Positions 449-58,151 of a stretch of DNA of 64,000 nt are shown here, in pieces (within the stretch, counting starts at the first letter, position 1; each line of letters opens with the position of its first letter). The DNA lies in the IMG/VR virus record IMGVR_UViG_3300029286_000011, one strand, 5' to 3'. Below the pieces are notes generated by a model, which ran no database searches, was not told the origin of the DNA, and saw nothing but the letters and a program-made list of their open reading frames with translations. The stretch comes from a virus. Taxonomy: Duplodnaviria > Caudoviricetes. Made by a program: the position numbers and the translations under genes.

Positions 449-1408
449 TCAGTTCTCGCCGTAACACACTGCCATGCCCTGCATATTCACAGCCACGGTT
501 ATCGTAGCCGTTACAGGGTCGAACTCTATCTGTACACCGTCGCCGCCTACCAATGAGATAGTCCTGCCGCCCACACCATTGACGGTACGCAGGACTTCGT
601 TACACATAGGACTACCATCGAGTGTAGAGGCAAACTCTGGAGCCTGTTCTAGCTGAAATACAGGCTGTTGCTCACACGGGCTTACCTTATCGTTGTCTAC
701 GTCAGCGCTGACCGTGATGCTGTTATCAACAGAGTTCAGCTCTAGCCTGCAATAGATGCCCTCCTGCAGTCGAAGATCACCACACATGCCTATCTGTCGT
801 GGCCATATGTCTTGAGGCGTTACTGGCCATACGACAGCAGAGCAATCTTCATCAGTTTCAAATCGTGTCCTATCCTCGTTAGCTATGCTGACACTGCGAG
901 CGTAACTTGCCACAAGATTCTGAACTACACCAGGCTCTATGATCATGGTGCCTGTCAGGCTGTTACCGTCTGTCAGCAGCGCTGCCAACTCGGCAAGATT
1001 ACCAAAGACAACGAACCCTTCCCAGCGTACGTCGTCTATCGTATCGCCGGTCGATAGGACAGATTCTGAGATCTCTAGCGGCACAACCTCAGAGACAGGC
1101 TCTTCTTCGTCAGTGTCAGCTTCGACAAATACAGGCACGTACACTGGATCAGAAAGACTTCGGCTAACTTGGAACACACCTTCGTTGAGCCCAGGTGCGT
1201 CCGAGTAGAAGCTGAATACAAACGTATCACCGGTGCGTGCTACGCTTGCCAGCCATATGCTATGAACAGCGCTGTCAAATTCCGATAAGACACCAGCTAT
1301 AAAGCCTGCGTCCACTATCGTTGAATCCGGCACGAAACATGACGACACTTCTGTGAAAGGCCATGTTCGATTTGCGTTGGTGTTATACCAGCCGGCTTGT
1401 GCTTGCAT
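449..1408 (-). CDS. Tail/baseplate-associated protein, paralog family member (N-terminal W..N..R.[WY]PF motif)
   Basis: 319 aa ORF in a tightly packed operon. WYNTNANRTWPF and later blocks align by eye with ORFs at 1419, 2740, 4416 and 11097. Confidence 0.7.
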   Translation of the reverse strand: MQAQAGWYNTNANRTWPFTEVSSCFVPDSTIVDAGFIAGVLSEFDSAVHSIWLASVARTGDTFVFSFYSDAPGLNEGVFQVSRSLSDPVYVPVFVEADTDEEEPVSEVVPLEISESVLSTGDTIDDVRWEGFVVFGNLAELAALLTDGNSLTGTMIIEPGVVQNLVASYARSVSIANEDRTRFETDEDCSAVVWPVTPQDIWPRQIGMCGDLRLQEGIYCRLELNSVDNSITVSADVDNDKVSPCEQQPVFQLEQAPEFASTLDGSPMCNEVLRTVNGVGGRTISLVGGDGVQIEFDPVTATITVAVNMQGMAVCYGEN

Positions 1409-1418
1409 TGCAGAAGTC

Positions 1419-2246
1419 TCACCGAATGCTGTTTAGCTTTTCGCCCACAACCTCAATAAGTAACCCCTGCGCTGTAGAGCGGATACGCAGGATGCTATCT
1501 TCAGCGTCCTGATTGCCTACAGTGAGCTTGAAGTCGCCGTATTGATCCGGAGAACATACAAGGCTTCTCGACGCATCTTTGACAGTGATGGTCTTGATAT
1601 GCCTAGGTGCAACAAATAGCCCTGTACCTAGTCGCCTGTTGAATAACGGATCACCAACAACGTCTATACGAATCGCGCTCAACACCTGTCGGGCCGTACC
1701 ACCCACACCTGCAGGTATTACAGCCTCCTGCGCAGACAATACAATCCCAGCGCCGCCAACAAACCAGACATCGCCTGTTACCAACGTACCGTCATCCAGT
1801 AAGAAACCACGCAGGCCTATTTCTGGTGTAGGTATGCAGCAGCTGGCAACGAACTCAGTTTGATCTTGCTCAAAGCTGAATGCACCAGTACCCCAGGTCT
1901 GGAAAATGGCTAGCCTGTTGGCCTCAGATACTAGCACACCTGCAGCTCGTCCGTAGTAGTCGAACAATGGCAATACGTCAGGCGGGCTCAACAGTGTGAA
2001 GCTGCCGTAGGCTCTAGTGGCTGTAGTTGAATCACCAATAACGATGCGAACTTCCTGCTGCGTCACAACCACCTGCGATAAATACAAACCGACAGTTCCG
2101 CCTACTGGATGCAGTGCAGCATCCAGAAACGTTGTCTCTGGTATAAAGACACCGCCGTCATTAACCAATGTGGCCTTATCAGAGAACGGGTACTTGGTGT
2201 TCTCTAACGACGGACGGAACTCGGGTTGTAGTATGCGCTCACTCAT
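1419..2246 (-). CDS. Tail/baseplate-associated protein, paralog family member
   Basis: 275 aa. Blocks LENTKYPFSD, IPETTFLDAAL, LYLSQV and VTGDVWFVGG are shared with neighbouring paralogs. Confidence 0.7.
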   Translation of the reverse strand: MSERILQPEFRPSLENTKYPFSDKATLVNDGGVFIPETTFLDAALHPVGGTVGLYLSQVVVTQQEVRIVIGDSTTATRAYGSFTLLSPPDVLPLFDYYGRAAGVLVSEANRLAIFQTWGTGAFSFEQDQTEFVASCCIPTPEIGLRGFLLDDGTLVTGDVWFVGGAGIVLSAQEAVIPAGVGGTARQVLSAIRIDVVGDPLFNRRLGTGLFVAPRHIKTITVKDASRSLVCSPDQYGDFKLTVGNQDAEDSILRIRSTAQGLLIEVVGEKLNSIR

Positions 2247-2731
2247 GCAAATCGCAGGCGTTTGCGAATCTGGGCAGACCTAGCGGCCCTGGTAGTGTCC
2301 ACAACAGCAACCGCAGGCTTGAAACACAGCCCGTACCTGGCAGCCCAGACCTCAATGTCTTTGACATTGTCGGCAGTAAGCGGCCCGTGCGGTTTGATGA
2401 GCTTGGCAGGATCAGTGGCCAATAGAGCCGATATGGACTCAATGCCAGTCTCCCAGACTGCATTACGAGTTGCAGCCGTCACCGTTCGAAGCATATCGTC
2501 CCACAGCTTGTTGATGTCGCCCGGCGGCACAGGCTCACCCGGTTCATCTTCGACATCGTATGCATCCTCTTCCTCAGCCGGCTCATCATCAGCCTCATCA
2601 GCCTCTTCGTCCGCAGCAGCTTGTAGCTCGTTTCGCAACGAGTCTATAGCGTTGGCAGCGGCCTCAGCTTGATCTTCGTCAACGGGCTGTTCAGGATAGC
2701 CTTCTTCAAAATCATCTTCTTCAATTGGCAT
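2243..2731 (-). CDS. Hypothetical protein with acidic N-terminal half
   Basis: 162 aa, D/E-rich, 4-bp overlap with the downstream gene, operon-like packing. Confidence 0.65.
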   Translation of the reverse strand: MPIEEDDFEEGYPEQPVDEDQAEAAANAIDSLRNELQAAADEEADEADDEPAEEEDAYDVEDEPGEPVPPGDINKLWDDMLRTVTAATRNAVWETGIESISALLATDPAKLIKPHGPLTADNVKDIEVWAARYGLCFKPAVAVVDTTRAARSAQIRKRLRFA

Positions 2732-2739
2732 ATGTACCT

Positions 2740-4407
2740 CTACGTGTAAACAAGGTCGCCGCTGTTGGTGAAGACAAATCTGTCAAATATTGTGGTGGCC
2801 TTGTAACTCTCTACACCAAAGCGGCTAAGACTACCGTCCCAGGCTACAGCTGTCGGATCTACGCTACAAAGCAAAGCGCCAGTTCCTGCATTACGCACAT
2901 AAGCCACCACCCAGCTGTAATTGGGATCTTCTGAAGGATAGCAGGCAACGACAACTCTGTACAGCGTATCCAGCGCCATCGCGGGCAACGCCGTGAAGTT
3001 CAAAACCGATAACTGGCCTTGGCTACGTACCATCAAAACCAGTCCACGGGTTCCAACATAAAACCCGTCCCAATCCATTGTCACTTGTATCCAGCGATAG
3101 TCATCATCGACAGACTGTATGCCGAATACAACACTGCCGTTGTTTAGCGTGTTGTTGATGTCATTGGTAAGCCGCATGTCCACAACAACTTTGCGGTAAT
3201 AGGCCGTATCTAGCGGCAGATTCCTGTAGGCCAGATTACGGACGCTAAGCTGTGTTGCTTGTATCGTGCCGCTTACGACAGAGTAACCTCCTAGCAGCGT
3301 TGTCCAGCCCACCAGGGAGGAAAGGTTATCAACCAAGGGCAGCGCCGGGTCTTCCTCTGTCTCCTCCACCTCTGAGTCAATGACGAAGGGATCTAGCTCT
3401 TCTTCATCGATGATAGTGATGGACTCGTCGGATATGGACACACACAGGTCTTCGTACTCGTTGGGCAGCGTGCCGTCGTCGGTAGGTAGACGAGCAGCTG
3501 TAACACACATGTCGCCAAGCCCTAGGCCGCAGTCAACAATGACGCCGCACACATCTTCCGTGCTGACAAGTTCGCCATCGTTGTCCAGAAAGGCCTCCCG
3601 GTGTACGTCAGTGATAACACCACAGCCTGTGAACTCGATGGTAATATTGCCGCTGCAGTCTGGTGTGACGGTGCCAATAGCTTCAACAGGTATCGGATCG
3701 CCGCATGTGTTGCTCTCAGGCCTGTCACCGCACGGACCTTTGTAGATATCAAAGACATTACGCTGCTGGCTGTTGTCGGTATTCTTGAGCCTAATGACAA
3801 TAGCCTCACGCGTTGCAGGGCTCTCGCTGTCACATAGATCGCTAGCAACCGGCACATGCCCAGGTATCTCGACACACTCGCGAACTATCTCTATGTCATC
3901 GCCGCCTATGAGTTTGACAATACCGGTCAAAGCTGTTGATACACCTAGCTTGCCAAACGACTGAATTGGCAAGTCACGGTAGGCTTTGGCAATTCTAGGC
4001 AGCAGTTGTGCCTGGCCTACAGAGGAGCAACGCCATGTACGCAGACCGGACTCTGTTATGTTGTCGCCAAACACTATCCAGCCGCCGACACCGGCAGCCA
4101 GTGGTGTGAGCGCATACTGCTTGTCCTGCATAAACGGACGCAGTATCCGTATAGCAGCCAACGGCACTGGTGTTGAGGGCGCAGTCAGACTATCTACGCC
4201 CAGTATCACTGCGCTTACAACAGAGGCGCCAACGGTTATGCCACTGACATAGGCGTATCTTGCCAACGACCGTGGAAAGCAGATATGCAGATCAGAGATG
4301 ATATTGGTAGGAATGCTGACGCCGGCATCGTCCACTAGCGACGCTAGTTCATCAAACGGATAGCACCGTTGCTGATTAAGCGAGTACCATGCCACATTTC
4401 TAGACAT
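2740..4407 (-). CDS. Tail-associated paralog with acidic linker and C-terminal beta-rich (possibly lectin-like) domain
   Basis: 555 aa. WYSLNQQRCYPFD N-terminus, several Cys, aromatic beta-strand-like C-terminus. Confidence 0.65.
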   Translation of the reverse strand: MSRNVAWYSLNQQRCYPFDELASLVDDAGVSIPTNIISDLHICFPRSLARYAYVSGITVGASVVSAVILGVDSLTAPSTPVPLAAIRILRPFMQDKQYALTPLAAGVGGWIVFGDNITESGLRTWRCSSVGQAQLLPRIAKAYRDLPIQSFGKLGVSTALTGIVKLIGGDDIEIVRECVEIPGHVPVASDLCDSESPATREAIVIRLKNTDNSQQRNVFDIYKGPCGDRPESNTCGDPIPVEAIGTVTPDCSGNITIEFTGCGVITDVHREAFLDNDGELVSTEDVCGVIVDCGLGLGDMCVTAARLPTDDGTLPNEYEDLCVSISDESITIIDEEELDPFVIDSEVEETEEDPALPLVDNLSSLVGWTTLLGGYSVVSGTIQATQLSVRNLAYRNLPLDTAYYRKVVVDMRLTNDINNTLNNGSVVFGIQSVDDDYRWIQVTMDWDGFYVGTRGLVLMVRSQGQLSVLNFTALPAMALDTLYRVVVACYPSEDPNYSWVVAYVRNAGTGALLCSVDPTAVAWDGSLSRFGVESYKATTIFDRFVFTNSGDLVYT

Positions 4408-4415
4408 CAGCGCAC

Positions 4416-5924
4416 CTAACCTGTCAGATAGCCTTGAGCTGTAGCCGGTTCAGTTACAAGCCGATACTGTAGCGATTCTGCACCCGGCCCGACCCCAGGC
4501 TGATAGCCAGGAACAAGTGAGCCATACGCATTGATGACAGGGTTAGGCACAGCGTAAGCATCTACAGATATGCCAACCGTGGCTGGAAACGAGCCTGCAG
4601 CCGGTATAAGACCTAGGTTGATGTAAGGCATGCTATAGGGATCAACACGAGCTGCCACAAATCTGAAGTACGGCCACGAACCCTCCGGCGTTGCCATAGA
4701 ATACTGTGACACACGTTCTATGCTGGCCCAGTCATCACCGTAATCTCCGGCGTACCAGATGTGATAGTCCGTGAGCGCGAAGCTGCAGCCAGACAGATCA
4801 ATCTCAAACACCAAGTTGCGTATGCACTGCTGCGTATTGTTGCAGTAGGCTGCTGATAGCCACGCGTAGTTTGGTTGCTGCAGCTTGATCTCGGCTCGTA
4901 GTCGACGGTTATTTCGGCATGATAGCTGTGCATTCCAGCGAGCTACGTTAGTTGCATAGATGTCTCGCACTGATTGCGCTCGGGCTACCATGTCTGCATA
5001 ACGATCACGTAGCTTCCTGATGGCCTCGTAGCAGGCCAGGAAGTCATCGCACTCGCAACACGGCCCACAGTCGTTGTACAGCTGCAGCGTCGCCCCTCTG
5101 ATTTCAACTTGCCTAGGGTCAGCTGAAAGCAGCGTGCGTATAGGCTGCTGCGCACGATAACAAGGATCCAAGTCTATTTTGAAGTTACCTCGTGCATCGC
5201 CTTCCGCTGAGTTGAGCTGCCGCAGGTAAACACTGTCTTCGCTGCAGTCGGCTGGATAACGTCCAGCACCCGCACCGGGTGTTGCGTGCAGCGTCAGTTT
5301 ATTGCTGACTCGCAACGGCTGTGAGGCATAGCCAAATTCATTCGGCGGTGTATCAACAAGATCTACGGAGCTGGCTGTTAGGTCCAGCTTAGTGTTGTAG
5401 CCGCCACGCAGGACAACATTGCCAAAGACTGCCGTGCTGCCGATCTTAATGCTTCTGAGATCTGGCAGTACTTCTGAGCAAACACGCTCGTCTAACTGGC
5501 CTGTAGTGGGCTCGATGTATTGGTCATACGTTATGACAGTCTCGTCATCGGCCCACTCAAGGAAGACAACAAGCCTAAGAATGGTCTGACCAAGGCTCCA
5601 CTGCAAGATACGAAAGCGTGTACCCCAGTCGTTACTGCTGAACTCATCAGCTAGCAAGCTATTGAATACAACAACACCATTGGCGTCACTTATCTGGACG
5701 TCATACGTGTGCACCGGTGTAATGGGCACTGTGACGACCTGATCGCCAAAGCCGTACAGCCAATCGATCTTGAAGGGACGTTGTAACTGATGCCCATCAT
5801 CACTGTAGGCTAGATAGGCGTCTGCTATAAGCTGCTTGATATCGGCCGACGGCGCTACAAACGGGTAGTCGCTGCCGCTGAACGGCTGAATAACACCGAT
5901 GCCCTGTCTGCCGAGTGTTGTCAT
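4416..5924 (-). CDS. Tail-associated paralog with PCCxC motif and coiled coil
   Basis: 502 aa. SDYPF near the N-terminus; DCGPCCECDDF followed by a helical segment, as in 11097..12047. Confidence 0.65.
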   Translation of the reverse strand: MTTLGRQGIGVIQPFSGSDYPFVAPSADIKQLIADAYLAYSDDGHQLQRPFKIDWLYGFGDQVVTVPITPVHTYDVQISDANGVVVFNSLLADEFSSNDWGTRFRILQWSLGQTILRLVVFLEWADDETVITYDQYIEPTTGQLDERVCSEVLPDLRSIKIGSTAVFGNVVLRGGYNTKLDLTASSVDLVDTPPNEFGYASQPLRVSNKLTLHATPGAGAGRYPADCSEDSVYLRQLNSAEGDARGNFKIDLDPCYRAQQPIRTLLSADPRQVEIRGATLQLYNDCGPCCECDDFLACYEAIRKLRDRYADMVARAQSVRDIYATNVARWNAQLSCRNNRRLRAEIKLQQPNYAWLSAAYCNNTQQCIRNLVFEIDLSGCSFALTDYHIWYAGDYGDDWASIERVSQYSMATPEGSWPYFRFVAARVDPYSMPYINLGLIPAAGSFPATVGISVDAYAVPNPVINAYGSLVPGYQPGVGPGAESLQYRLVTEPATAQGYLTG

Positions 5925-5928
5925 ATAG

Positions 5929-7185
5929 CTATATGGTTACTAGGCCTGGTGTACGTCCTGAGAACTTCAGAAGATTGGCACGCACATACGGGATGTTGTT
6001 GAGCTCGTGCCATGGAGACGGGAAGTAGTTGTACTTACGCACCTCTTGGAACTTCACTGGAGTGCCTATGAAGCGTGCCTGCTCGGCATGAGTCCAATAC
6101 AGAAACGAATTGGCATTCCAGAAGCTGCAATGTGTCGGATCTTGAAACGCACCACGACCATCCGTGCTCGGTGTATCGCTTAACAACCAGCCGTTGGGCG
6201 CTAGACAGCGATAGATCTCTCGCATGGTGACCAGTGGATCGCGCAGGTGCTCAAGAGCGTCACTGGCACGGAATACACCAACAGACCCATCAGGGAATGG
6301 CCACGGTGCGCAATTAAGGTCACGCTGTATGACACCCGGCGCTGGAAGTAGATCGATGCCCGTGAATTGCGCAGCCGGCAAGGGACCACTGCACAGGTCA
6401 ATAGCTTCCAACGAATTGTCCCGACACCAGCGCATAACCAATTCTGGCAGGTAGTGATCGCACATACCTACCGTGCCCTTCTGTATCCAATCATTCAGCT
6501 CCAGCCCTGCTGAGCTATTCTCGTCATGGTGATGCTGTATGTACAGACACTTGTCGATGTGGCGTACGTTACCAGACACGTATGTGCGGCATAGAAGGTC
6601 TTGATCATCTAGCGCCGGCAGCAGCGGATCGTGTCCCATTATCGTGTTGTAAAACGAGCTACGCCAAGCTCTGACATGGTTGGGCGCATACCATATGCGC
6701 GAGAAAGACGCAGGCGATGGTGGAAACGCAACAGCCTCCGCAAGCGCACGGCCTTCCCACTCAAACTGACGATACTGCCAGCCATGCTCGCTAGGGTACA
6801 ACACAGGGCTGCCATCTTGATTGACGTCACACCAGTTCGAATAGACAAAATCGATGCCAGGTTCAAACGCCGCGTACAGCTCTGCCAGTGCATTTGGTGT
6901 CAGCTCATCATCGTGGTCGACTTCAACCAGGAATTCGCCAGAAGCTAGCTTACAGCAGAACTTCTTTAGCGAGCCTATACCTGTGTTTCCTGCCGCGTCA
7001 AAATCAATGCACTTTATGTGTTGACAACCGCTGGTCGCCAACAAGTTTCGAACATCGATTGCCTTGGCATCTTTGTTAGCAACGACAACCCACTCAAAGT
7101 CCTTGAATGTCTGTCGCGACAAGCTCTGCGCTAATCGCCGAATATTGGCAGGATTATGCGTAGGCGTAAAGATACTGAATCGCAT
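5929..7185 (-). CDS. Glycosyltransferase family 2 fused to a class I SAM-methyltransferase-like domain
   Basis: GT2 hallmarks: FSIFTPTHN, QTFKDFEWVVV, VEVDHDDEL (DxD-like), DDQDLLCR. C-terminal IDLCSG...DLN..PWPFPDGSV...DALEHL...EIYRCLAPNGWL is Methyltransf_11-like. Confidence 0.85.
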   Translation of the reverse strand: MRFSIFTPTHNPANIRRLAQSLSRQTFKDFEWVVVANKDAKAIDVRNLLATSGCQHIKCIDFDAAGNTGIGSLKKFCCKLASGEFLVEVDHDDELTPNALAELYAAFEPGIDFVYSNWCDVNQDGSPVLYPSEHGWQYRQFEWEGRALAEAVAFPPSPASFSRIWYAPNHVRAWRSSFYNTIMGHDPLLPALDDQDLLCRTYVSGNVRHIDKCLYIQHHHDENSSAGLELNDWIQKGTVGMCDHYLPELVMRWCRDNSLEAIDLCSGPLPAAQFTGIDLLPAPGVIQRDLNCAPWPFPDGSVGVFRASDALEHLRDPLVTMREIYRCLAPNGWLLSDTPSTDGRGAFQDPTHCSFWNANSFLYWTHAEQARFIGTPVKFQEVRKYNYFPSPWHELNNIPYVRANLLKFSGRTPGLVTI

Positions 7186-7212
7186 GATTTAACCCCTCAA
7201 TGTTGTTGTCGG

Positions 7213-7647
7213 TCAGTCAGGATTGACTGATTCTTCCACACCTAGCGCAGCCTCAAGACCTGCGATAGTTGCTTCTGTAGCTGCGATAGCTGCAACGTCA
7301 GGCGTTGACGCCGCCTGCAGCTTAGCAAGAACAGCAGTGTAGTAGCTGTGATAGTAGATTTTGGCAGCAAGCTCGGTCACTGTCTGAAGCATAGCCGCGA
7401 CAGCAGGAAACTTGATAGCCTCGGCGAAGATGTCATGAATAAGAACCTTCTTGGTCAGCTCGGAGTCCCAGGCAATTTCCTTGCTGGCAAAGTTATACGG
7501 CTGGAACATCAGGGACATCCGCTGTGTCAGTGGGTCTCGTTTCGACACACTTACAAGCATCGCCGTCAGATACAGCTCGTTGAACGTCTTGCTTTCGACC
7601 GCAGGCAGTACAGTCGCTTCGGCGCTCGGTATCGGCGTTAGGTCCAT
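7213..7647 (-). CDS. Hypothetical protein
   Basis: ORF track gives 7213..7692. ATG at 7647 (MDLTPIP) has a GGAG 6 nt upstream and is the preferred start. Overlaps the 3' end of the radical SAM gene. Confidence 0.6.
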   Translation of the reverse strand: MDLTPIPSAEATVLPAVESKTFNELYLTAMLVSVSKRDPLTQRMSLMFQPYNFASKEIAWDSELTKKVLIHDIFAEAIKFPAVAAMLQTVTELAAKIYYHSYYTAVLAKLQAASTPDVAAIAATEATIAGLEAALGVEESVNPD

Positions 7648-8806
7648 TAGTGGCTCCATTCTTGTTTCTAGGCTTACGTTTAGGCACGTCACGATTTGGT
7701 CTTGAATCTAGGCTTGCTTGCCACCAGTTAGGATTCAACTCACGAAGCTGTAGATCAATCCAATGTACAATCTTAGCCGACTCTTGCTTGAATCGACAGT
7801 ATACAGGGTTGGGCTTTGACATGTCGCCCGTAGTCTTATAGTTGATATGATAGCAGCCGGAATCGCAACTACGTACAGCAACGCAGCCGGCACACATGGC
7901 TGGGCGTTCTAGGCTTACGACTTTGTGTAATCCACACTTTGCAATGTTACCATAGCCTCTATCTTTGTAATCGAGTATCTCTCTTAGCGTTCCACGGCAG
8001 AACGGCCCATCAGCCGGTTCGCTGCTAAACCGATGACAAAGATAGACATTGCCTTCGCAAGATACACAAGCCATGTTACGGCCAGCGCCGCAACCCATGC
8101 GGTGTATAAAATCATGCTGTTTTGACTTGAATGTAGCGCAAGCCCTATCAATCCAGAACAGGCGAAAGCCCTTACCGGTCTTTTTGAAGTCCTCTACAAA
8201 CTCAATGCCCAGCTGCCACAGCTGTTGACAGAATATCTCTATGTTTTCAGCTGACCAGTCCGGATAGTAGTCGGGCTGTGGCGACATGCCTTTGACAAAG
8301 CCCAAGGACTGAAAGTAGTGCATAGACTCGATAATGTACTTGGCAGCCTGCGGTGCGATCGTACTGCGACGAGTCTTGCCATAGTCTTTCCACAACAGGG
8401 TGGCTTTGTTGTAGCGTTCTAGGGCTTTGACTCCTCGCCCATCTGCCACGGCAGCAGGACAGCCGTCCACAGACCGCTGCACACTCAGCTTATTACGTTT
8501 GCAGTATTCGAAGATCTCTACGTCGTCAGATAGGCCGTTACTCATAACAGAAAAATGAGTTCCAGCCCCTCTTGATTTCAATGTGTCGACAAGATACTTA
8601 AGACTGTCAAACGCCAGCAAAGGTTCCCCGCCGTACAGCTGCAACTTACCTAGACGACCGCGCATGGTTATCTCGATCACGTCGTCCAACACAGCCTTCG
8701 ACATGTCTACATTGGTTTTATGCTGTCCGAGATAGCAATAAGGGCAGTCAAGATTGCATCGCCTGGTGAGCTCGATGTCTAGTGAACGAATGCCGGAAAA
8801 ACCCAT
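7493..8806 (-). CDS. Radical SAM enzyme with SPASM domain (peptide/protein-maturase type)
   Basis: CxxxCxxC (CNLDCPYC), GGEPLL, SNG, RSVDG; SPASM cysteines CGAG..C...CHRF and CAGCVAVRSCDSGC...NPVYC. GGAGGGG RBS. Confidence 0.92.
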   Translation of the reverse strand: MGFSGIRSLDIELTRRCNLDCPYCYLGQHKTNVDMSKAVLDDVIEITMRGRLGKLQLYGGEPLLAFDSLKYLVDTLKSRGAGTHFSVMSNGLSDDVEIFEYCKRNKLSVQRSVDGCPAAVADGRGVKALERYNKATLLWKDYGKTRRSTIAPQAAKYIIESMHYFQSLGFVKGMSPQPDYYPDWSAENIEIFCQQLWQLGIEFVEDFKKTGKGFRLFWIDRACATFKSKQHDFIHRMGCGAGRNMACVSCEGNVYLCHRFSSEPADGPFCRGTLREILDYKDRGYGNIAKCGLHKVVSLERPAMCAGCVAVRSCDSGCYHINYKTTGDMSKPNPVYCRFKQESAKIVHWIDLQLRELNPNWWQASLDSRPNRDVPKRKPRNKNGATNGPNADTERRSDCTACGRKQDVQRAVSDGDACKCVETRPTDTADVPDVPAV

Positions 8807-8817
8807 AAAACCCCTCC

Positions 8818-8843
8818 AGATTTAATTAGCGCTAATTACATCT
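8818..8843. repeat. 26-bp intergenic palindrome, copy 1 (one mismatch)
   Basis: AGATTTAATTAGCGCTAATTACATCT between the fibre gene stop (8855) and the radical SAM RBS. Confidence 0.95.
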
Positions 8844-8854
8844 CCGCCGGGTCA

Positions 8855-10564
8855 CTAGTCGTCTGGATCGCAAGTGCACGCAGGATCCCTGCCGCAGCCT
8901 TCATCCTCAGGACATGGTATGTCTGCACAGTCGGGATCACAACCCTCACATGTGCAGTCTACGCAATTAGGCTCACAGCCTGTCTGTTCGCACACGCAAT
9001 CAGTACAGTTAGGCTCACATTCCTCGCAATGGCAATCTTCCGGAGATCCGCATTCGTCACCATCGCAGTCACAGTTACAGTCACCAGTACTGCAATTAGG
9101 CGAGCAGCTGCCGCCAGATTCATTGCTACAATCAGCTGCGGCGCAGTTAGGCCAACAGGCCTCCTCGTGATCGCAGTCAACCGGATCGTCTTCAGGACAG
9201 CCATCATCTGTGTCACACTGGCACGTAGGGTCAGATCCACAGTGCTGAAATGTTTGAGAGATCTCGGTAACAGAAATGCTTGCACTCCATGAATAGCGTG
9301 CAGCAGCCAAACCCTGGCACCATATCGTCAGATACGGCCCTTCTTCAGGAGTTGCTGAAGGATTAACCGGTGAGACAGTTACCTCCATCCCAAGACTTGC
9401 AACAGAGCTATCATCGGTGAACAATACTTCGTTAGTAGGCGAGCCAACAAGCTCAGCCACACCGTCACTAGCCATCTTAACCACGCCACGCATTTCCCAT
9501 ACGGTTGAGTATCGACTATAGTCGATAGCACCAGCGTGAATTACAAAAGCCCACAGCTTGTCAGCCGTCATCTGTAGTCTACTACCGTTTAGGGTTATTT
9601 CTGTCCAGTTATCATCTTCCGTCTGTGCATAGCCTACGGCTGTAAAGCGACGCACATACGGACCAATTCCCTGAGCAACTGAGGCAAAAATATCGTTTTT
9701 TGTGAATAACCCTGATGTTATCCCGTACGGTGCAGTGACATTATTGGTATAGCCGGAGACTGCAGCGTAGCGGGCCTCGCCGGCTATACTGTTAGCAAAG
9801 CCGCCCAAAACAGCACTGTAATCGCCTAGGTTTAAGTTGCTGACGCCGCCCAGGATAGCCGCATTTTCACCACTTAAGATATTTGATTGGCCTCCGAGAA
9901 TTGCAGCACTTGTTCCAGTGTTCTCGTTATAATATCCGCCCAGCAGTGCCGAATATTCGCCGCGAGCTCTTTGATTGTCGTTACCGCTTAGAAGTTGCAG
10001 ATCTACTGATCGATGACCTAGATTTGTGGTTCCGCCTGTTCTAATGCTGCCTGTGCCGTTGGGGGTTAAGATTATGTCTTTGTTGCCCGTTGTAGTGACA
10101 ATAGCGTATCCGGCTGTATTCAAGTTAGCCGTCAACGTGCTTGTCACGCCGCCTTGCGGTCCTTGTGCGCCCTGCGCACCTTGTGCGCCCTGCGCACCTT
10201 GTGCGCCGTTATTTCCCTGATTGCCTTTAAGACCCTGCACACCCTGTGTACCTTGCGTACCTTGGCTGCCCGCAGCCCCGGTAGCGCCCTGGACGCCTTG
10301 TGTGCCTGCGCCAGTGGCCCCTTGAGCCCCTTGGCTGCCTTGAGCGCCCTGTACACCTTGTGTGCCTTGAACACCCTGACTTCCAGCAGCACCACCTGCA
10401 CCCTGAGCCCCCTGCGGACCTTGCGTACCTTCGCCACCGCCACCGGACTCTAGTGCGTCAGCAATGGCTATGAAGTTGTCATTCAACGCCGAGCCGGCAG
10501 CGCCAGTGGGCGTTGGCGAGACAATGAGCAGTCCTTTGTAGTATTGCAGCGTCGGTGTAGACAT
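8855..10564 (-). CDS. Collagen-like tail fibre/adhesin with YadA-head-like repeats and a C-terminal Cys/Asp/Glu-rich domain
   Basis: About 30 G-X-Q-type triplets. Repeats of the form S/A-A-I-L-G-G-x-x-N resemble left-handed beta-roll adhesin heads. The last 128 aa contain 30 Cys. CACGGAGG RBS. Confidence 0.8.
   Translation of the reverse strand: MSTPTLQYYKGLLIVSPTPTGAAGSALNDNFIAIADALESGGGGEGTQGPQGAQGAGGAAGSQGVQGTQGVQGAQGSQGAQGATGAGTQGVQGATGAAGSQGTQGTQGVQGLKGNQGNNGAQGAQGAQGAQGAQGPQGGVTSTLTANLNTAGYAIVTTTGNKDIILTPNGTGSIRTGGTTNLGHRSVDLQLLSGNDNQRARGEYSALLGGYYNENTGTSAAILGGQSNILSGENAAILGGVSNLNLGDYSAVLGGFANSIAGEARYAAVSGYTNNVTAPYGITSGLFTKNDIFASVAQGIGPYVRRFTAVGYAQTEDDNWTEITLNGSRLQMTADKLWAFVIHAGAIDYSRYSTVWEMRGVVKMASDGVAELVGSPTNEVLFTDDSSVASLGMEVTVSPVNPSATPEEGPYLTIWCQGLAAARYSWSASISVTEISQTFQHCGSDPTCQCDTDDGCPEDDPVDCDHEEACWPNCAAADCSNESGGSCSPNCSTGDCNCDCDGDECGSPEDCHCEECEPNCTDCVCEQTGCEPNCVDCTCEGCDPDCADIPCPEDEGCGRDPACTCDPDD
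10161..10207. repeat. 18-bp tandem repeat (about 2.6 copies) inside the collagen region
   Basis: ccttgtgcgccctgcgca x2 plus a partial copy, encoding (GAQ)n on the minus strand. Confidence 0.9.
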
Positions 10565-10585
10565 CTATCAACCTCCGTGTTTAGT

Positions 10586-10870
10586 TCAAGCCAACAACTG
10601 ACACCGCAAACAAGGCGGGTGCACTTTTGCACCACATCCGGGACAACGCACAGGATCTTTGGTCGCATCAGGATAATGAATCATAACCGACGTGTCGTCA
10701 ATGACAACAACGTCCTCAACTGTGCCCAATACATCGTAGATGTCAGAGAGGTCACACAACAATTTACGCTGAATACGCACCGGCGTATAGCCTTGAGCAC
10801 TCAGGTCAACAATTGTGTACGCCATCTCCTTAGTTAAGCATTTGACGATTGCGCCGGCGGATGGGGCCAT
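10586..10870 (-). CDS. Small protein with C-terminal zinc-ribbon-like motif
   Basis: 94 aa. RCPGCG...PPCLRC; the N-terminal part is loosely HTH-like. Confidence 0.55.
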   Translation of the reverse strand: MAPSAGAIVKCLTKEMAYTIVDLSAQGYTPVRIQRKLLCDLSDIYDVLGTVEDVVVIDDTSVMIHYPDATKDPVRCPGCGAKVHPPCLRCQLLA

Positions 10871-11094
10871 GTCTGTGTTTGTCCTCTGTCTGGCGGCGGC
10901 GTGCCGTCAATGTATTCTTGTAACGTAGGCGACGGTAGTGGAGTTACTAGTGGCTGTGTGTTGAGTCGTGCCGCACCCACTTGTCGTCTAGGCTCAGGAT
11001 TTATCCACTGCGGCATAAGCCCGCGACGTTGCATGTAGTGATCCATTGCGGCAACAGACGACAAATCTAATGGAAACTCATGCACGTTGGCCAT
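10834..11094 (-). CDS. Hypothetical protein
   Basis: 86 aa. Starts 2 nt after the upstream stop and overlaps the next gene. Confidence 0.45.
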   Translation of the reverse strand: MANVHEFPLDLSSVAAMDHYMQRRGLMPQWINPEPRRQVGAARLNTQPLVTPLPSPTLQEYIDGTPPPDRGQTQTWPHPPAQSSNA

Positions 11095-11096
11095 TA

Positions 11097-12047
11097 TCAG
11101 CTACCTGTTATACAGCCTCTATCTTGCAGCTTAGATCCAAGTACGACTTGATCCATCTGAGCCACACGAGCTTCCAAACTAACCAAGAAATTCTCTAACG
11201 TGGTGGCCTGTCTGCCAAACTGTTCCATTGCCTGAGTCAACGTCTCTAGTTCACTGCAACCGCAGCAAGGTGTTGAGCACGGGTTTGTCAGCTTGAGACC
11301 ATTGATCATTGTCTCAACCTGCAAGCACTCAGAACCTAGCAGTGTTAGTCTACCGTTGGCATCAGGCCTGATACCGTTGACGTTTCTGATCGGCGGCGAT
11401 AATGCGTTACCAATGCATACGCAATCGTCATTCAGGCCTTCACCGTCTATTGCGTCTACAACTATCTCAGGATCTGCACCCTCGGCCTGTACAACAGTGA
11501 ATCGTATGTTTCTACCGGCGCTCAACACCACGGTGCCAGTCAGAACTTCACTACGCTCCTGACCATTCTGTACGATCACGCCACTGACACCACGAATACT
11601 CGGACGAACACAATCAGGCTCTATGATCGTGGCGGTAGGATTGAACGTGAATATGCCAGCAGGCTGCTGCACAATATTAGAAAGATCACCCACAACGATA
11701 TGGCCTGTGGCGTCATAGAAGTCACCTTGGCCTAGTAGTCTGTATGACTGCCCATAGGTGTGTGTCGTAGCCGCAAGCATTGCCGACGCTACAGTGGTTG
11801 TGGTCGAGCCGTTGTAGTAACCGATGACAATGTTGTAACCTGTCGTAAACGCACCAAGAGTGGATACGTAGAATCCGGCAGGATTTACAGAGACACCGGC
11901 ATTAAGCGACAGATGCAACGATAGGAGAAAGTCGTTAGGAATGCTAAACGCACCACTTTGGTCTACACCGGCAGCATCAGCCGTCAACGGATAGCGCCGG
12001 CTGGCGTTGTGATTCAACCATTCAAGATTGCGTAAACCAATGGCCAT
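11097..12047 (-). CDS. Tail/baseplate-associated paralog with PCCGC motif and coiled coil
   Basis: 316 aa. WLNHNASRRYPL, IPNDFLL, LTGTVVLSAG, VNGIRPDANG, CSTPCCGC. Confidence 0.7.
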   Translation of the reverse strand: MAIGLRNLEWLNHNASRRYPLTADAAGVDQSGAFSIPNDFLLSLHLSLNAGVSVNPAGFYVSTLGAFTTGYNIVIGYYNGSTTTTVASAMLAATTHTYGQSYRLLGQGDFYDATGHIVVGDLSNIVQQPAGIFTFNPTATIIEPDCVRPSIRGVSGVIVQNGQERSEVLTGTVVLSAGRNIRFTVVQAEGADPEIVVDAIDGEGLNDDCVCIGNALSPPIRNVNGIRPDANGRLTLLGSECLQVETMINGLKLTNPCSTPCCGCSELETLTQAMEQFGRQATTLENFLVSLEARVAQMDQVVLGSKLQDRGCITGS

Positions 12048-19954: not shown

Positions 19955-19972
19955 GTAATTAGCGCTAATTAC
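19955..19972. repeat. Intergenic palindrome, copy 2 (18-bp perfect core)
   Basis: GTAATTAGCGCTAATTAC between the baseplate J stop and the RBS of the 19936 gene. Confidence 0.92.
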
Positions 19973-19978
19973 GAGCGC

Positions 19979-21640
19979 TCAAACTTCAATCATATTAGCC
20001 GTACGGACAGAAATTGCAATATCGTCTTCGCTGATGAACAGGGCAATGGTCCGACCACTGGACATATTGTCGTCGTCGGCAGGCAATTCCAGCACATCCG
20101 TAGTGGCCGTGTACTGCAGTTCTCCGTTAGGCTTACGAATCACTGCCAATAGCTCTAGCGCCCGAACATGGGCTGGAGAGGACAGATAGGCGTGTATGAC
20201 ATCGGTCAGAGCCGATGTAGACAGCACATTGGTGAAACCAAGGTTGTGGATGTATGCCGCCAGATCGCTACGGATCGCTGCAACGTCTGGCGTTGTTTGC
20301 CCTGGCGACAGTTCTATGGTGAACGACATGTGCAGGAAGCACGGTATCGGGGCTTTGATCAATATGTCGCCAGCGCCATTCAAAAAGCTGCGACGTGAAG
20401 CCCAATCCTGAATGGCAGCAATATCCGGCATACGCTCCACAGTTACATCGTAGTCCTGCGTCGACACGTATGGCGTTAGTGACGCTGTCGGTGTGGTCGA
20501 ATCAACGAACTGGATAACGGCGGTCTGGAATCGACTGTACGTTGACTCTAGGGCTGTAGCAATGTCGGGAAGTAACCCACCGGATTCAAGTGCGCTTATA
20601 TCAGTGCCGCGCACGTCGCTGTAGACTGCGAACGTACCGCTATCTGTGCTGCCAGAAGCCACAATACGTGAGGCATAGTAGAAGCCTGGGGCCTCTTCAC
20701 GATCAATCGAAAACTGCCACAGGCCGCCGCTTCCGTCGCTAGCACGTCCAACATATGTGGCTGTCTTGGCTAGCATAGTGCTGAGTGGTCGGATACGTGT
20801 ACGTACGTACCAGTCTGTGCAGCCACCAACAGAGCACGGCATAAGGCTATGCTGATCTCGCAGCATTCCAGCATCGCCCATTCCAAGTATCGAGTCCGAC
20901 AGTATCTGCGGAAAGGCAGAAGCATCCCTGATCGCGGCACTCATATGGGCGCGACCACCACAGGTCTTAACTGTCAGACCATCGGACAGTCGAGCGATAA
21001 GATCCGTATTGGTCTCCTCGTCGCGGCCATCAGAAAAGTCTGAAGTGACGTAGGCTTTGACAAAGTACGACGGCTGCGGAATGACACTCAACTCAGTGCC
21101 ACGCAACAGCATGTAGCTACTGCCGACTGAGGCAGCCACAAGCTCAATAGTAAAGCTGTAGTTGCCGTCACTCAACTCCTGCAACACGCGGTCCTGATCA
21201 GACACAACATTATCAACAGATGTGCGCGCAGAGAAACTAGCGGCAGTGGTAAACTGCAGACCATTGGCCTCAAAGAGCGTACCCGCCGCTATTGTTACTG
21301 GCTGCAATGCATTGAGCTGAATGGTGACTGTGCCGCCAGCGAAGCTACCTGCACTTCTTACAACGCCGTGGTTGTAGAGTACGGCATCCACCAGATCGTC
21401 TGAGACGAGTGAAGGATTCTCCACCAGGCGTTGCAGGCTCAGAGCATCAGACATGTTTGTCAGCTCGGTCTGGTGCTTAGCTGCAAACATAGCCCCAGGA
21501 ACCAGTAGAAGGCTGCGCAATACGCCTGACCGTAGATCCAGACTAGGATTGTATTCAGCCAGTAGCGCTGTCAGCAATTCAAGCTGCTGCTCAACTAGCG
21601 TAGGATCAAGATCAGAAAAGCTGGCAACATCAGTACCCAT
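19979..21640 (-). CDS. Baseplate J-like wedge protein
   Basis: 553 aa. 'P.LDLRSGVLRSLL', 'GVVRSAGSFAGGTVT', 'IELVAASVG', 'GRDEETNTDLIARL' match the baseplate J/gp6-like layout. Confidence 0.8.
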   Translation of the reverse strand: MGTDVASFSDLDPTLVEQQLELLTALLAEYNPSLDLRSGVLRSLLLVPGAMFAAKHQTELTNMSDALSLQRLVENPSLVSDDLVDAVLYNHGVVRSAGSFAGGTVTIQLNALQPVTIAAGTLFEANGLQFTTAASFSARTSVDNVVSDQDRVLQELSDGNYSFTIELVAASVGSSYMLLRGTELSVIPQPSYFVKAYVTSDFSDGRDEETNTDLIARLSDGLTVKTCGGRAHMSAAIRDASAFPQILSDSILGMGDAGMLRDQHSLMPCSVGGCTDWYVRTRIRPLSTMLAKTATYVGRASDGSGGLWQFSIDREEAPGFYYASRIVASGSTDSGTFAVYSDVRGTDISALESGGLLPDIATALESTYSRFQTAVIQFVDSTTPTASLTPYVSTQDYDVTVERMPDIAAIQDWASRRSFLNGAGDILIKAPIPCFLHMSFTIELSPGQTTPDVAAIRSDLAAYIHNLGFTNVLSTSALTDVIHAYLSSPAHVRALELLAVIRKPNGELQYTATTDVLELPADDDNMSSGRTIALFISEDDIAISVRTANMIEV

Positions 21641-33848: not shown

Positions 33849-33876
33849 GAGATGTAATTAGCGCTAATTACATCTC
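33849..33876. repeat. Intergenic palindrome, copy 3 (28-bp perfect)
   Basis: GAGATGTAATTAGCGCTAATTACATCTC between the sheath stop and the tube RBS. Confidence 0.97.
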
Positions 33877-48588: not shown

Positions 48589-48614
48589 AGATGTAATTAG
48601 CGCTAATTACATCT
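48589..48614. repeat. Intergenic palindrome, copy 4 (26-bp perfect)
   Basis: AGATGTAATTAGCGCTAATTACATCT between the capsid-operon terminator and the accessory region. Confidence 0.97.
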
Positions 48615-58125: not shown

Positions 58126-58151
58126 AGATGTAATTAGCGCTAATTAAATCT
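58126..58151. repeat. Intergenic palindrome, copy 5 (one mismatch)
   Basis: AGATGTAATTAGCGCTAATTAAATCT, the exact reverse complement of copy 1. Fills the whole gap between the TAG (58150-58152) and the ATG (58123-58125). Confidence 0.95.

Follow-up and report, generated by a model that had tools for sequence, protein, structure and literature searches.

To our knowledge, PapB and QhpD are the two characterised enzymes that join cysteine (Cys) to aspartate (Asp) or glutamate (Glu) by a thioether bond, and CteB, a SCIFF maturase with a SPASM domain, is a thioether former as well. PapB requires an acidic acceptor on the C-terminal side of the Cys, takes Glu as well, and is indifferent to the spacing between the two residues; the role of its ribosomally synthesised and post-translationally modified peptide (RiPP) recognition element (RRE) has also been described (PMC12373016). 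QhpD introduces three thioethers, one Cys-Glu and two Cys-Asp, into a protein subunit (as summarised in PMC13692751). CrpC of Methanococcus voltae, reported in September 2026, forms ranthionines that were detected by mass spectrometry at C-A-V-D and C-A-G-D in the protein CrpA, whose C-terminal repeats carry C-X-X-Q/D; phages are not mentioned in that paper (PMC13692751). NxxcB joins Cys to the beta-carbon of asparagine (Asn) and tolerates Asp (PMC9389541), and in a cyanophage a maturase of the radical S-adenosylmethionine (SAM) superfamily was termed an "antibiotic synthesis gene", with no substrate named (PMC12801897). Here we describe a locus in a stretch of 64,000 nucleotides (hereafter the window) from the IMG/VR virus record IMGVR_UViG_3300029286_000011 (Duplodnaviria; Caudoviricetes), where a tail-fibre gene, whose product ends in a tail rich in Cys, Asp, and Glu, is followed by a gene for a radical SAM/SPASM enzyme. 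Both genes are intact, and the pairing recurs in unrelated phages. The enzyme very probably acts on the fibre tail, and we consider it fairly probable, judging from the sequences, that it closes many small thioether rings between Cys and Asp, Glu, or Asn at the tip of the fibre.

The window is a part of a 185-kb record (89% complete) from an uncultured giant phage. According to a search of sequencing runs, this DNA was carried only by lake-water and freshwater metagenomes, and no RNA runs with a match were listed. Nearly all window genes are borne by the minus strand, and the same-strand block that includes the fibre gene also holds a baseplate wedge gene (19979–21640, phrog_6). The whole 185-kb record contains a single Cys-dense long open reading frame (ORF) and a single radical SAM gene, which are neighbours of each other. 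The components of the locus are as follows.

8855..10564, minus strand: tail-fibre gene of 569 residues, presumed substrate and carrier of the tail (ORF; phrog_6320 tail fiber, E 2e-24)
10151..10438, minus strand: collagen-like Gly-X-Y repeats, fibre residues 43–138 (PF01391 Collagen, 44.9 bits vs. a cut-off of 27.2)
9242..10150, minus strand: fibre body, residues 139–441, with repeats of the YadA-head type followed by a distal domain (homologues P0023–P0039)
8858..9241, minus strand: Cys/Asp/Glu tail, fibre residues 442–569 (residue counts)
8807..8854, minus strand: intergenic spacer of 48 nt with a palindrome and a ribosome-binding site (sequence)
7493..8806, minus strand: radical SAM/SPASM enzyme of 437 residues, presumed thioether (ranthionine) synthase (NF047865 PapB family, E 9.3e-39)
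8735..8758, minus strand: CX3CX2C motif, Cys 17/21/24, for the SAM-binding [4Fe-4S] cluster (invariant in 15/15 family members)
7796..8092, minus strand: SPASM domain, enzyme residues 239–337, for two auxiliary [4Fe-4S] clusters (alignment, eight invariant Cys)
7496..7720, minus strand: C-terminal extension of the enzyme, residues 363–437 (predicted local distance difference test, pLDDT, < 50)

The carrier in the window is a collagen-like phage tail fibre: its Gly-X-Y repeats score above the Pfam threshold, a short N-terminal region common to phage tail fibres gives the family match, and the gene is located among tail genes. Models of the collagen-like adhesins Lcl and Scl matched residues 43–138 as well, and the Gly-X-Y repeats imply that the fibre is probably trimeric. 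The 128-residue tail contains 30 Cys, 24 Asp, and 14 Glu (38 acidic residues) with one Lys/Arg and terminates in C-T-C-D-P-D-D. These counts agree with those of the original prediction, which had been made from the letters of this DNA and had proposed that the fibre end is cross-linked by the product of the next gene. The five C-x-P-[ND]-C motifs that it described were likewise found (residues 470, 487, 516, 530, and 542), and they themselves fit C-x-x-[N/D]. The tail had no match to any Pfam, NCBIfam, or Atlas family, and a search for structural look-alikes in the ESM Atlas gave no usable match. The Atlas model of the whole fibre protein had a pLDDT of 0.55, and the tail alone had no predicted fold.

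Homologues of the fibre body in other phages (P0023–P0039) have 0–2 Cys in their last 120 residues, and none of them has a Cys-rich end. One homologue (P0034, 614 residues) aligns to fibre residues 191–435 and stops 2 residues later; the distal domain of the fibre body appears to be complete without the tail. No radical SAM gene was found within 6 kb of the tail-less homologues in the two contexts examined. Since the tail-less relatives end where the tail begins and have no enzyme nearby, tail and enzyme are evidently gained and lacking as a pair. The original prediction had named relatives carrying either gene without the other as evidence to the contrary; these two fibre relatives have neither the tail nor a radical SAM gene nearby.

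A search of 5.8 billion proteins yielded 14 relatives of the enzyme with 34–46% identity, all of them metagenomic, and IMG/VR contributed three further ones. When 1.84 billion cluster representatives were searched exhaustively with HMMER, the size of the clade was estimated at ~25–35 clusters at 50% identity. The co-occurrence proposed by the original prediction was borne out: at 13 of the 14 independent loci (clade enzymes 31–46% identical), a Cys-rich stretch lies upstream of the enzyme on the same strand, and in these 13 it stops 4–7 residues short of the carrier C-terminus. The two genes are adjacent in 11 loci and separated by one gene in 2. At three loci, the Cys-rich frame was absent from the public gene calls and was recovered by all-frame translation. 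The carriers include collagen-like fibres (window and L009), proteins of ~2000 residues (up to 2018) with F5/8 type C (discoidin) domains within the baseplate module (L002 and L014), a lectin-like DUF2341/Laminin_G protein (L013), and proteins made almost entirely of repeats (L006). Their N-termini are unrelated fibre or adhesin domains and do not resemble leaders. Because the carriers are mutually unrelated, tail and enzyme travel as a cassette, in which the tail is a portable module. The pairing of tail and enzyme is not a matter of chance.

No clade member was found among the genomes of 185,579 species (best matches 24–26% identity) or in phage GenBank, where Campylobacter phages and contigs of gut phages gave the best matches (20–25% identity). 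As far as these data go, the clade looks phage-borne. Searches with the tail sequences, the fibre body, the enzyme of the window, and two newly found members of the clade revealed no further contexts, and a metagenome scan for enzyme contexts gave no loci beyond those already in the set. Some longer relatives of 700–1300 residues (P0059, P0063, P0065, P0066, P0070, and P0074) contain two to three radical SAM/SPASM units per chain.

The spacing between Cys and acidic residues in the tails is regular. When 11 tails were pooled, Asp or Glu occupied the third position after Cys (Cys+3) 311 times vs. 109 expected from shuffled sequences, with z +24.8, a pooled value that overstates independence since the repeats in one tail share ancestry, so that the weight lies in the agreement among tails. 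That agreement was complete: the enrichment at +3 was significant in 11 of 11 tails despite their differing repeat units (CPEEC, CxCDGD, CxCNTD, CESDC, and others). Asp and Glu were depleted at Cys+2, +4, and +6. About 77% of the ~545 Cys having a +3 residue fit C-x-x-[D/E/N], the commonest +3 residues being Asp (221), Asn (111), and Glu (90), and this register is conserved. In the window tail, 15 of the 30 Cys have Asp or Glu at +3, a number reached by 1 of 2000 shuffles, and 4 have Asn, which gives 19 of 30 for the three residues together. The original prediction had counted another register, C-x3-[D/E]. Its count of 12 among the 30 Cys was correct, but as a register it was rejected: z is ~+1.2 in the window (11 of 30 in the shuffle comparison), the motif is depleted in the family (66 vs. 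109 expected), and C-x-x-[D/E/N] is enriched instead.

The sequence C-x-C-[D/N]-x-[D/E] followed by 1–4 residues forms the end of 9 of the 13 carriers. The composition of the tails also follows the enzyme phylogeny: the Asn-rich tails (L012, L013, and L373) belong with one enzyme subclade and the Glu-rich tails (L002 and L014) with another, each with 100/100 support. This match between subclade and +3 residue could also be produced by shared descent of the cassette.

As the original prediction had stated, the gene following the fibre encodes an intact radical SAM/SPASM enzyme. Pfam Radical_SAM gave 45.3 bits vs. a cut-off of 29.5, and all cluster-binding Cys are present, the SPASM pattern being C239-x12-G252-x4-C257; C305-x2-C308-x5-C314-x3-C318; C337. 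The enzyme thus conforms to the superfamily pattern (CX3CX2C together with CX9-15GX4C...CX2CX5CX3C...C). Eight SPASM Cys (239, 257, 270, 305, 308, 314, 318, and 337) were invariant in an alignment of 15 sequences. For all 15 aligned clade enzymes, the top family was NF047865 (PapB), aligned over its full length with a best E of 2e-53, followed across the clade by QhpD (TIGR03906, 1.4e-39), a nif11-type maturase (1.5e-39), and then the SCIFF maturase. The placement suggested as a check in the original prediction therefore fell with peptide and protein thioether formers (PapB, QhpD, nif11-type, and SCIFF) and not with sulfatase maturases. The window enzyme aligned to PapB model positions 2–330 of 330 with 133.6 bits, far below the equivalog cut-off of 340 bits, so that it falls outside that family and represents a separate clade, to which function is not transferable by family membership.

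The closest sequence in the Protein Data Bank (PDB) was CteB (5WGG, E 3.4e-12), with the alignment starting at CteB residue 95. In those clade members from the exhaustive search where the CX3CX2C motif was located (some are truncated), it stands at residues 12–42, mostly 12–25. The position of this motif near the N-terminus and the start of the CteB alignment at residue 95 indicate that the N-terminal leader-binding RRE, which PapB, QhpD, CteB, and CrpC have, is absent from the clade. Recognition of a leader via an RRE, as known for the PapB family, is thus not what is found here. An AlphaFold2 model of the enzyme had a pLDDT of 80.8; its predicted fold was matched first by CteB (E 8e-16, template modelling score 0.63) and next by the anaerobic sulfatase maturase (anSME), a ranking that does not separate thioether formers from the sulfatase maturase.

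The C-terminal extension of the enzyme (residues 363–437) is predicted to be disordered and contains 14 Lys/Arg and four Cys in C-x-x-C and C-x-C motifs. It overlaps an ORF at 7213–7692 in another frame, and the enzyme end is therefore uncertain. A net-positive stretch follows the conserved W-W motif in 11 of 11 clade enzymes examined, and the clade enzymes are mostly net positive. The motifs C-T-A-C and C-K-C-V-E of the window extension resemble the substrate, and the extension of the L004 enzyme bears C-H-A-C-D-L-E, C-H-V-C-D-F-D, and C-S-C-D-Q. The Cys motifs in the enzyme extensions could be pseudo-substrates or self-modification sites.

Compared by its published description, CrpC/CrpA shares with the phage pair a SPASM enzyme with three [4Fe-4S] clusters, an adjacent Cys-rich protein, and the same Cys/+3 register. 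In contrast to the phage pair, CrpC has an RRE and CrpA a 47-residue leader-like N-terminus; moreover, the CrpC/CrpA system is archaeal, whereas the phage substrate is the end of a 569-residue fibre. PapB, which acts on PapA (the freyrasin ranthipeptide), is the best family for the clade and makes thioethers from Cys to the Asp beta-carbon. Its native register is C-x3-D in a short, leader-bearing peptide recognised with an RRE, whereas the phage tail has C-x-x-[D/E/N] in a structural protein, with neither leader nor RRE. QhpD, the second-best family, modifies a protein subunit (QhpC) and not a secreted peptide. However, QhpD works through an RRE and the leader of QhpC, its three links span 6–9 residues in a small subunit, and the phage enzyme scored 69.5 bits vs. 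the cut-off of 453. Among relatives of solved structure, CteB (of CteB/CteA; 5WGG/5WHY), a thioether-forming SPASM enzyme, is the nearest in both sequence and fold; the phage enzyme lacks the CteB N-terminal domain, CteB has no Cys at the position of clade Cys270, and the identity is 20%. NxxcB/NxxcA and the CXXX-repeat and Cys-every-fifth systems (TIGR04115 and NF038107) also comprise SPASM enzymes acting on Cys-repeat substrates, and the Asn link bears on the L012, L013, and L373 tails. They differ from the phage pair in that the NxxC acceptor is N-terminal to Cys and the substrates are short peptides; the phage enzyme scored 51.8 bits vs. 350 for TIGR04115.

As in ranthionine formation on protein substrates, a Cys-rich protein is encoded beside the phage enzyme, and the acceptor residues stand at a fixed offset C-terminal to Cys. 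A short precursor peptide with C-x3-D, as in the PapB system, was not found, the candidate substrate being the end of the fibre. CrpC/CrpA already shows that an enzyme can place thioethers on a large Cys-rich protein; the novelty of the idea therefore concerns virions and not proteins generally. Radical SAM thioethers are already known on peptides, QhpC, and CrpA; what would be new is a phage structural protein. No literature linking such thioethers to phage structural proteins was found in a search that left most subscription journals outside.

We propose the following course of events. The enzyme would bind the unfolded acidic tail in the cytoplasm of the host, late in infection, and would do so without a leader peptide, as the missing RRE domain suggests. 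Binding may involve a positively charged surface and the C-terminal stretch of the enzyme on one side and the tail end motif C-x-C-[D/N]-x-[D/E] on the other; the basic stretch and the shared end motif are only suggestive as a basis of recognition. The enzyme would then cleave SAM reductively, and the 5'-deoxyadenosyl radical would attack the Asp, Glu, or Asn at Cys+3 and remove a hydrogen from its side chain. With the sulfur of that Cys activated on an auxiliary Fe-S cluster, a thioether (ranthionine) ring would close, and each ring would make the protein 2 Da lighter. In the window tail, up to ~15–19 repeats could be converted in this way into a stack of four-residue rings, which would be non-reducible and protease-resistant and would sit at the distal tip of the trimeric collagen-like fibre. 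Applied to the whole family, the proposal is that a leaderless, RRE-less, phage-only clade of ranthionine synthases forms a cassette with a portable C-x-x-[D/E/N] tail and may place tens of micro-rings on the tips of unrelated receptor-binding proteins; we regard this extended version as evenly balanced between right and wrong.

The enzyme might instead modify the tail by other radical chemistry, such as sactionine formation at an alpha-carbon, conversion of Cys into formylglycine in the manner of anaerobic sulfatase maturases, epimerisation, or C-C and C-O links. SPASM enzymes catalyse many reactions, the evidence from pairing fits any of them equally, and anSME directly follows CteB in the fold ranking. 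The eight invariant SPASM Cys are arranged as in the canonical motif, which may mean that neither auxiliary cluster lacks a ligand, and the five C-x-P-x motifs in the window tail recall the C-x-P-x-R of sulfatases. The profile hidden Markov models, however, favour PapB (2e-53) and QhpD (1.4e-39) over anSME: the best match to the sulfatase maturase model (TIGR03942) was 5.9e-16, it was obtained in 12 of 15 members, and this family is outside the top 25 of the window enzyme. C-x-P-x-R and C-x-A-x-R are absent from the tail, and C-x-P is unconserved in the other tails. The sulfatase-maturase version was therefore rejected, on its rank among the models and on the missing C/S-x-P/A-x-R target motif. 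For the other chemistries, the coupling between Cys and Asp/Glu/Asn at +3 is telling, as it is predicted by a link from Cys to a side chain, whereas a modification of Cys only would not need it. We consider a chemistry other than side-chain thioether rings unlikely, though it is the strongest of the alternatives.

Less probable still is that the tail is an ordinary adhesion domain, metal-binding (Zn, Fe, or Ca) or disulfide-knotted, which folds after lysis, and that the enzyme acts elsewhere or has no target in the virion at all. Cys together with Asp and Glu are classic metal ligands, the L006 and L009 tails have D-x-D-G-like stretches recalling Ca-binding repeats, and the absence of a predicted fold for the tail alone and the existence of one clade enzyme without a Cys-rich neighbour would both agree with this explanation. 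It leaves unexplained, however, why tail and enzyme are paired at 13 of 14 loci on unrelated carriers, why the tail-less fibres are also enzyme-less, and why the +3 residue tracks the enzyme subclade; nor does the genome offer an alternative candidate substrate. We hold this explanation to be improbable.

A RiPP-like core on an oversized fibre leader, cleaved off as a free peptide, or a removable assembly chaperone, is very improbable: the Cys-rich part always forms the very end of its carrier, like RiPP cores, many phage fibres shed C-terminal chaperone domains, and Cys repeats of the C-N-C-N-Y type in other viral clades precede S-D-x-R-x-K, but no protease, cleavage motif, or exporter was found beside the pair in the window and the relatives examined, the tails (60–400 residues) are far longer than RiPP cores, and the C-terminal end of adhesin-like carriers is normally the working tip.

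Cross-linking of the fibre tip into thioether rings has to be weighed against several observations, to which the limits given above for the family score, the fold ranking, and the pooled enrichment also belong. No tail in the family is less regular than that of the window (z +3.2), where 11 of the 30 Cys are off register. Recognition with neither RRE nor leader is not known to have a tested precedent. One clade enzyme (P0007, at L372, a 7.3-kb contig with cellular-looking genes) has no Cys-rich ORF. In a search of IMG/VR for tails without enzyme by the DNA pattern (C-x-x-[D/E])x4, the matches were mostly 12-nt microsatellites and giant-virus repeats, and in this swamped search only two true tails emerged, each of them beside a radical SAM gene. 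Finally, the fibre stop and the start of the radical SAM gene are separated by a spacer that holds the perfect 16-bp palindrome TAATTAGCGCTAATTA (8823–8838), and this may mean that the two genes are regulated separately. The spacer was searched for a terminator-like site and none was found there; a GGAGG ribosome-binding site (8813–8817) precedes the enzyme ATG by 6 nt. The palindrome occurs five times in the window vs. 0 expected, always in intergenic positions (8823–8838, 19956–19971, 33855–33870, 48594–48609, and 58131–58146), and may be a site of a phage regulator or an RNA hairpin. At L372, the enzyme gene (1147–2334) is flanked by an SBP_bac_10 (DUF1559-type) gene on one side and a gene for an RND efflux pump on the other; the contig probably belongs to a bacterial chromosome and may be a clue to the host group.

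Downstream of the enzyme gene, the window encodes a neighbour that may or may not belong to the system:

5929..7185, minus strand: fusion of a family 2 glycosyltransferase and a methyltransferase (PF00535, PF13489/PF08241)

At L009, a DegT aminotransferase and a GT1 glycosyltransferase (2074–4988) are located just upstream of the Cys-tailed collagen fibre. Sugar-modifying genes thus flank Cys-tailed fibres in the window and at L009, and the fibre may be glycosylated too. In two fibre-like neighbours in the window (4416–5924 and 11097–12047), neither of which has a family match, there is a C-x(2-3)-C-C-x-C cluster: CGPCCEC at residue 286 and CSTPCCGC at residue 257, respectively. Several genes within 449–12047 have an N-terminal motif resembling W..N..R.YP in common.

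Other viral radical SAM/SPASM clades (L027–L056 and others, ~25% identity) occur 2–3 kb from small fibre proteins, in which (C-x-C-N-Y) repeats stand right before S-D-x-R-x-K, the cleavage motif of self-cleaving fibre chaperone domains; at some loci, three to four such proteins are found in tandem. Further viral radical SAM clades pair with C-Q-x-C-Q tails and others with C-N-C-N-Y tails. The acidic-tail, RRE-less, upstream-adjacent clade is a distinct branch among the viral radical SAM clades with Cys tails. In a viral contig (L015, 3702–7122), three tandem radical SAM/SPASM genes lack a Cys-rich partner within 6 kb; the genes that follow them encode a DUF1566-like protein and a small protein. 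In bacterial metagenome-assembled genomes (L242 at ~4430–5000, L277 at ~4480–5000, and L267 at ~4450–5000; among them one unclassified, one of the Myxococcales, and one of the Vicinamibacteria), Cys-tailed proteins of 420–1340 residues with C-S-S-D-C / C-S-W-D-C or C-Q-x-x-C-E repeats are encoded immediately upstream of a distant radical SAM gene. They resemble a cellular version of what is seen in the phages.

Phage particles are known to be reinforced covalently by autocatalysis, as in the isopeptide bonds of capsids, or via disulfides and metals. If the proposed cross-linking is true, a virion part would for the first time be seen to be hardened covalently by an enzyme through radical chemistry, which would add a new layer to virion maturation. 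The pair of tail and enzyme would also provide a natural leaderless system that cross-links full-size proteins. The clade would consist of thioether synthases that apparently need neither leader nor RRE to act on the ends of large folded proteins, enzymes of a kind wanted for peptide and protein stapling. For the phage itself, a non-reducible cross-link on a host-recognition fibre could affect the stability of the fibre in lake water and the recognition of the host.

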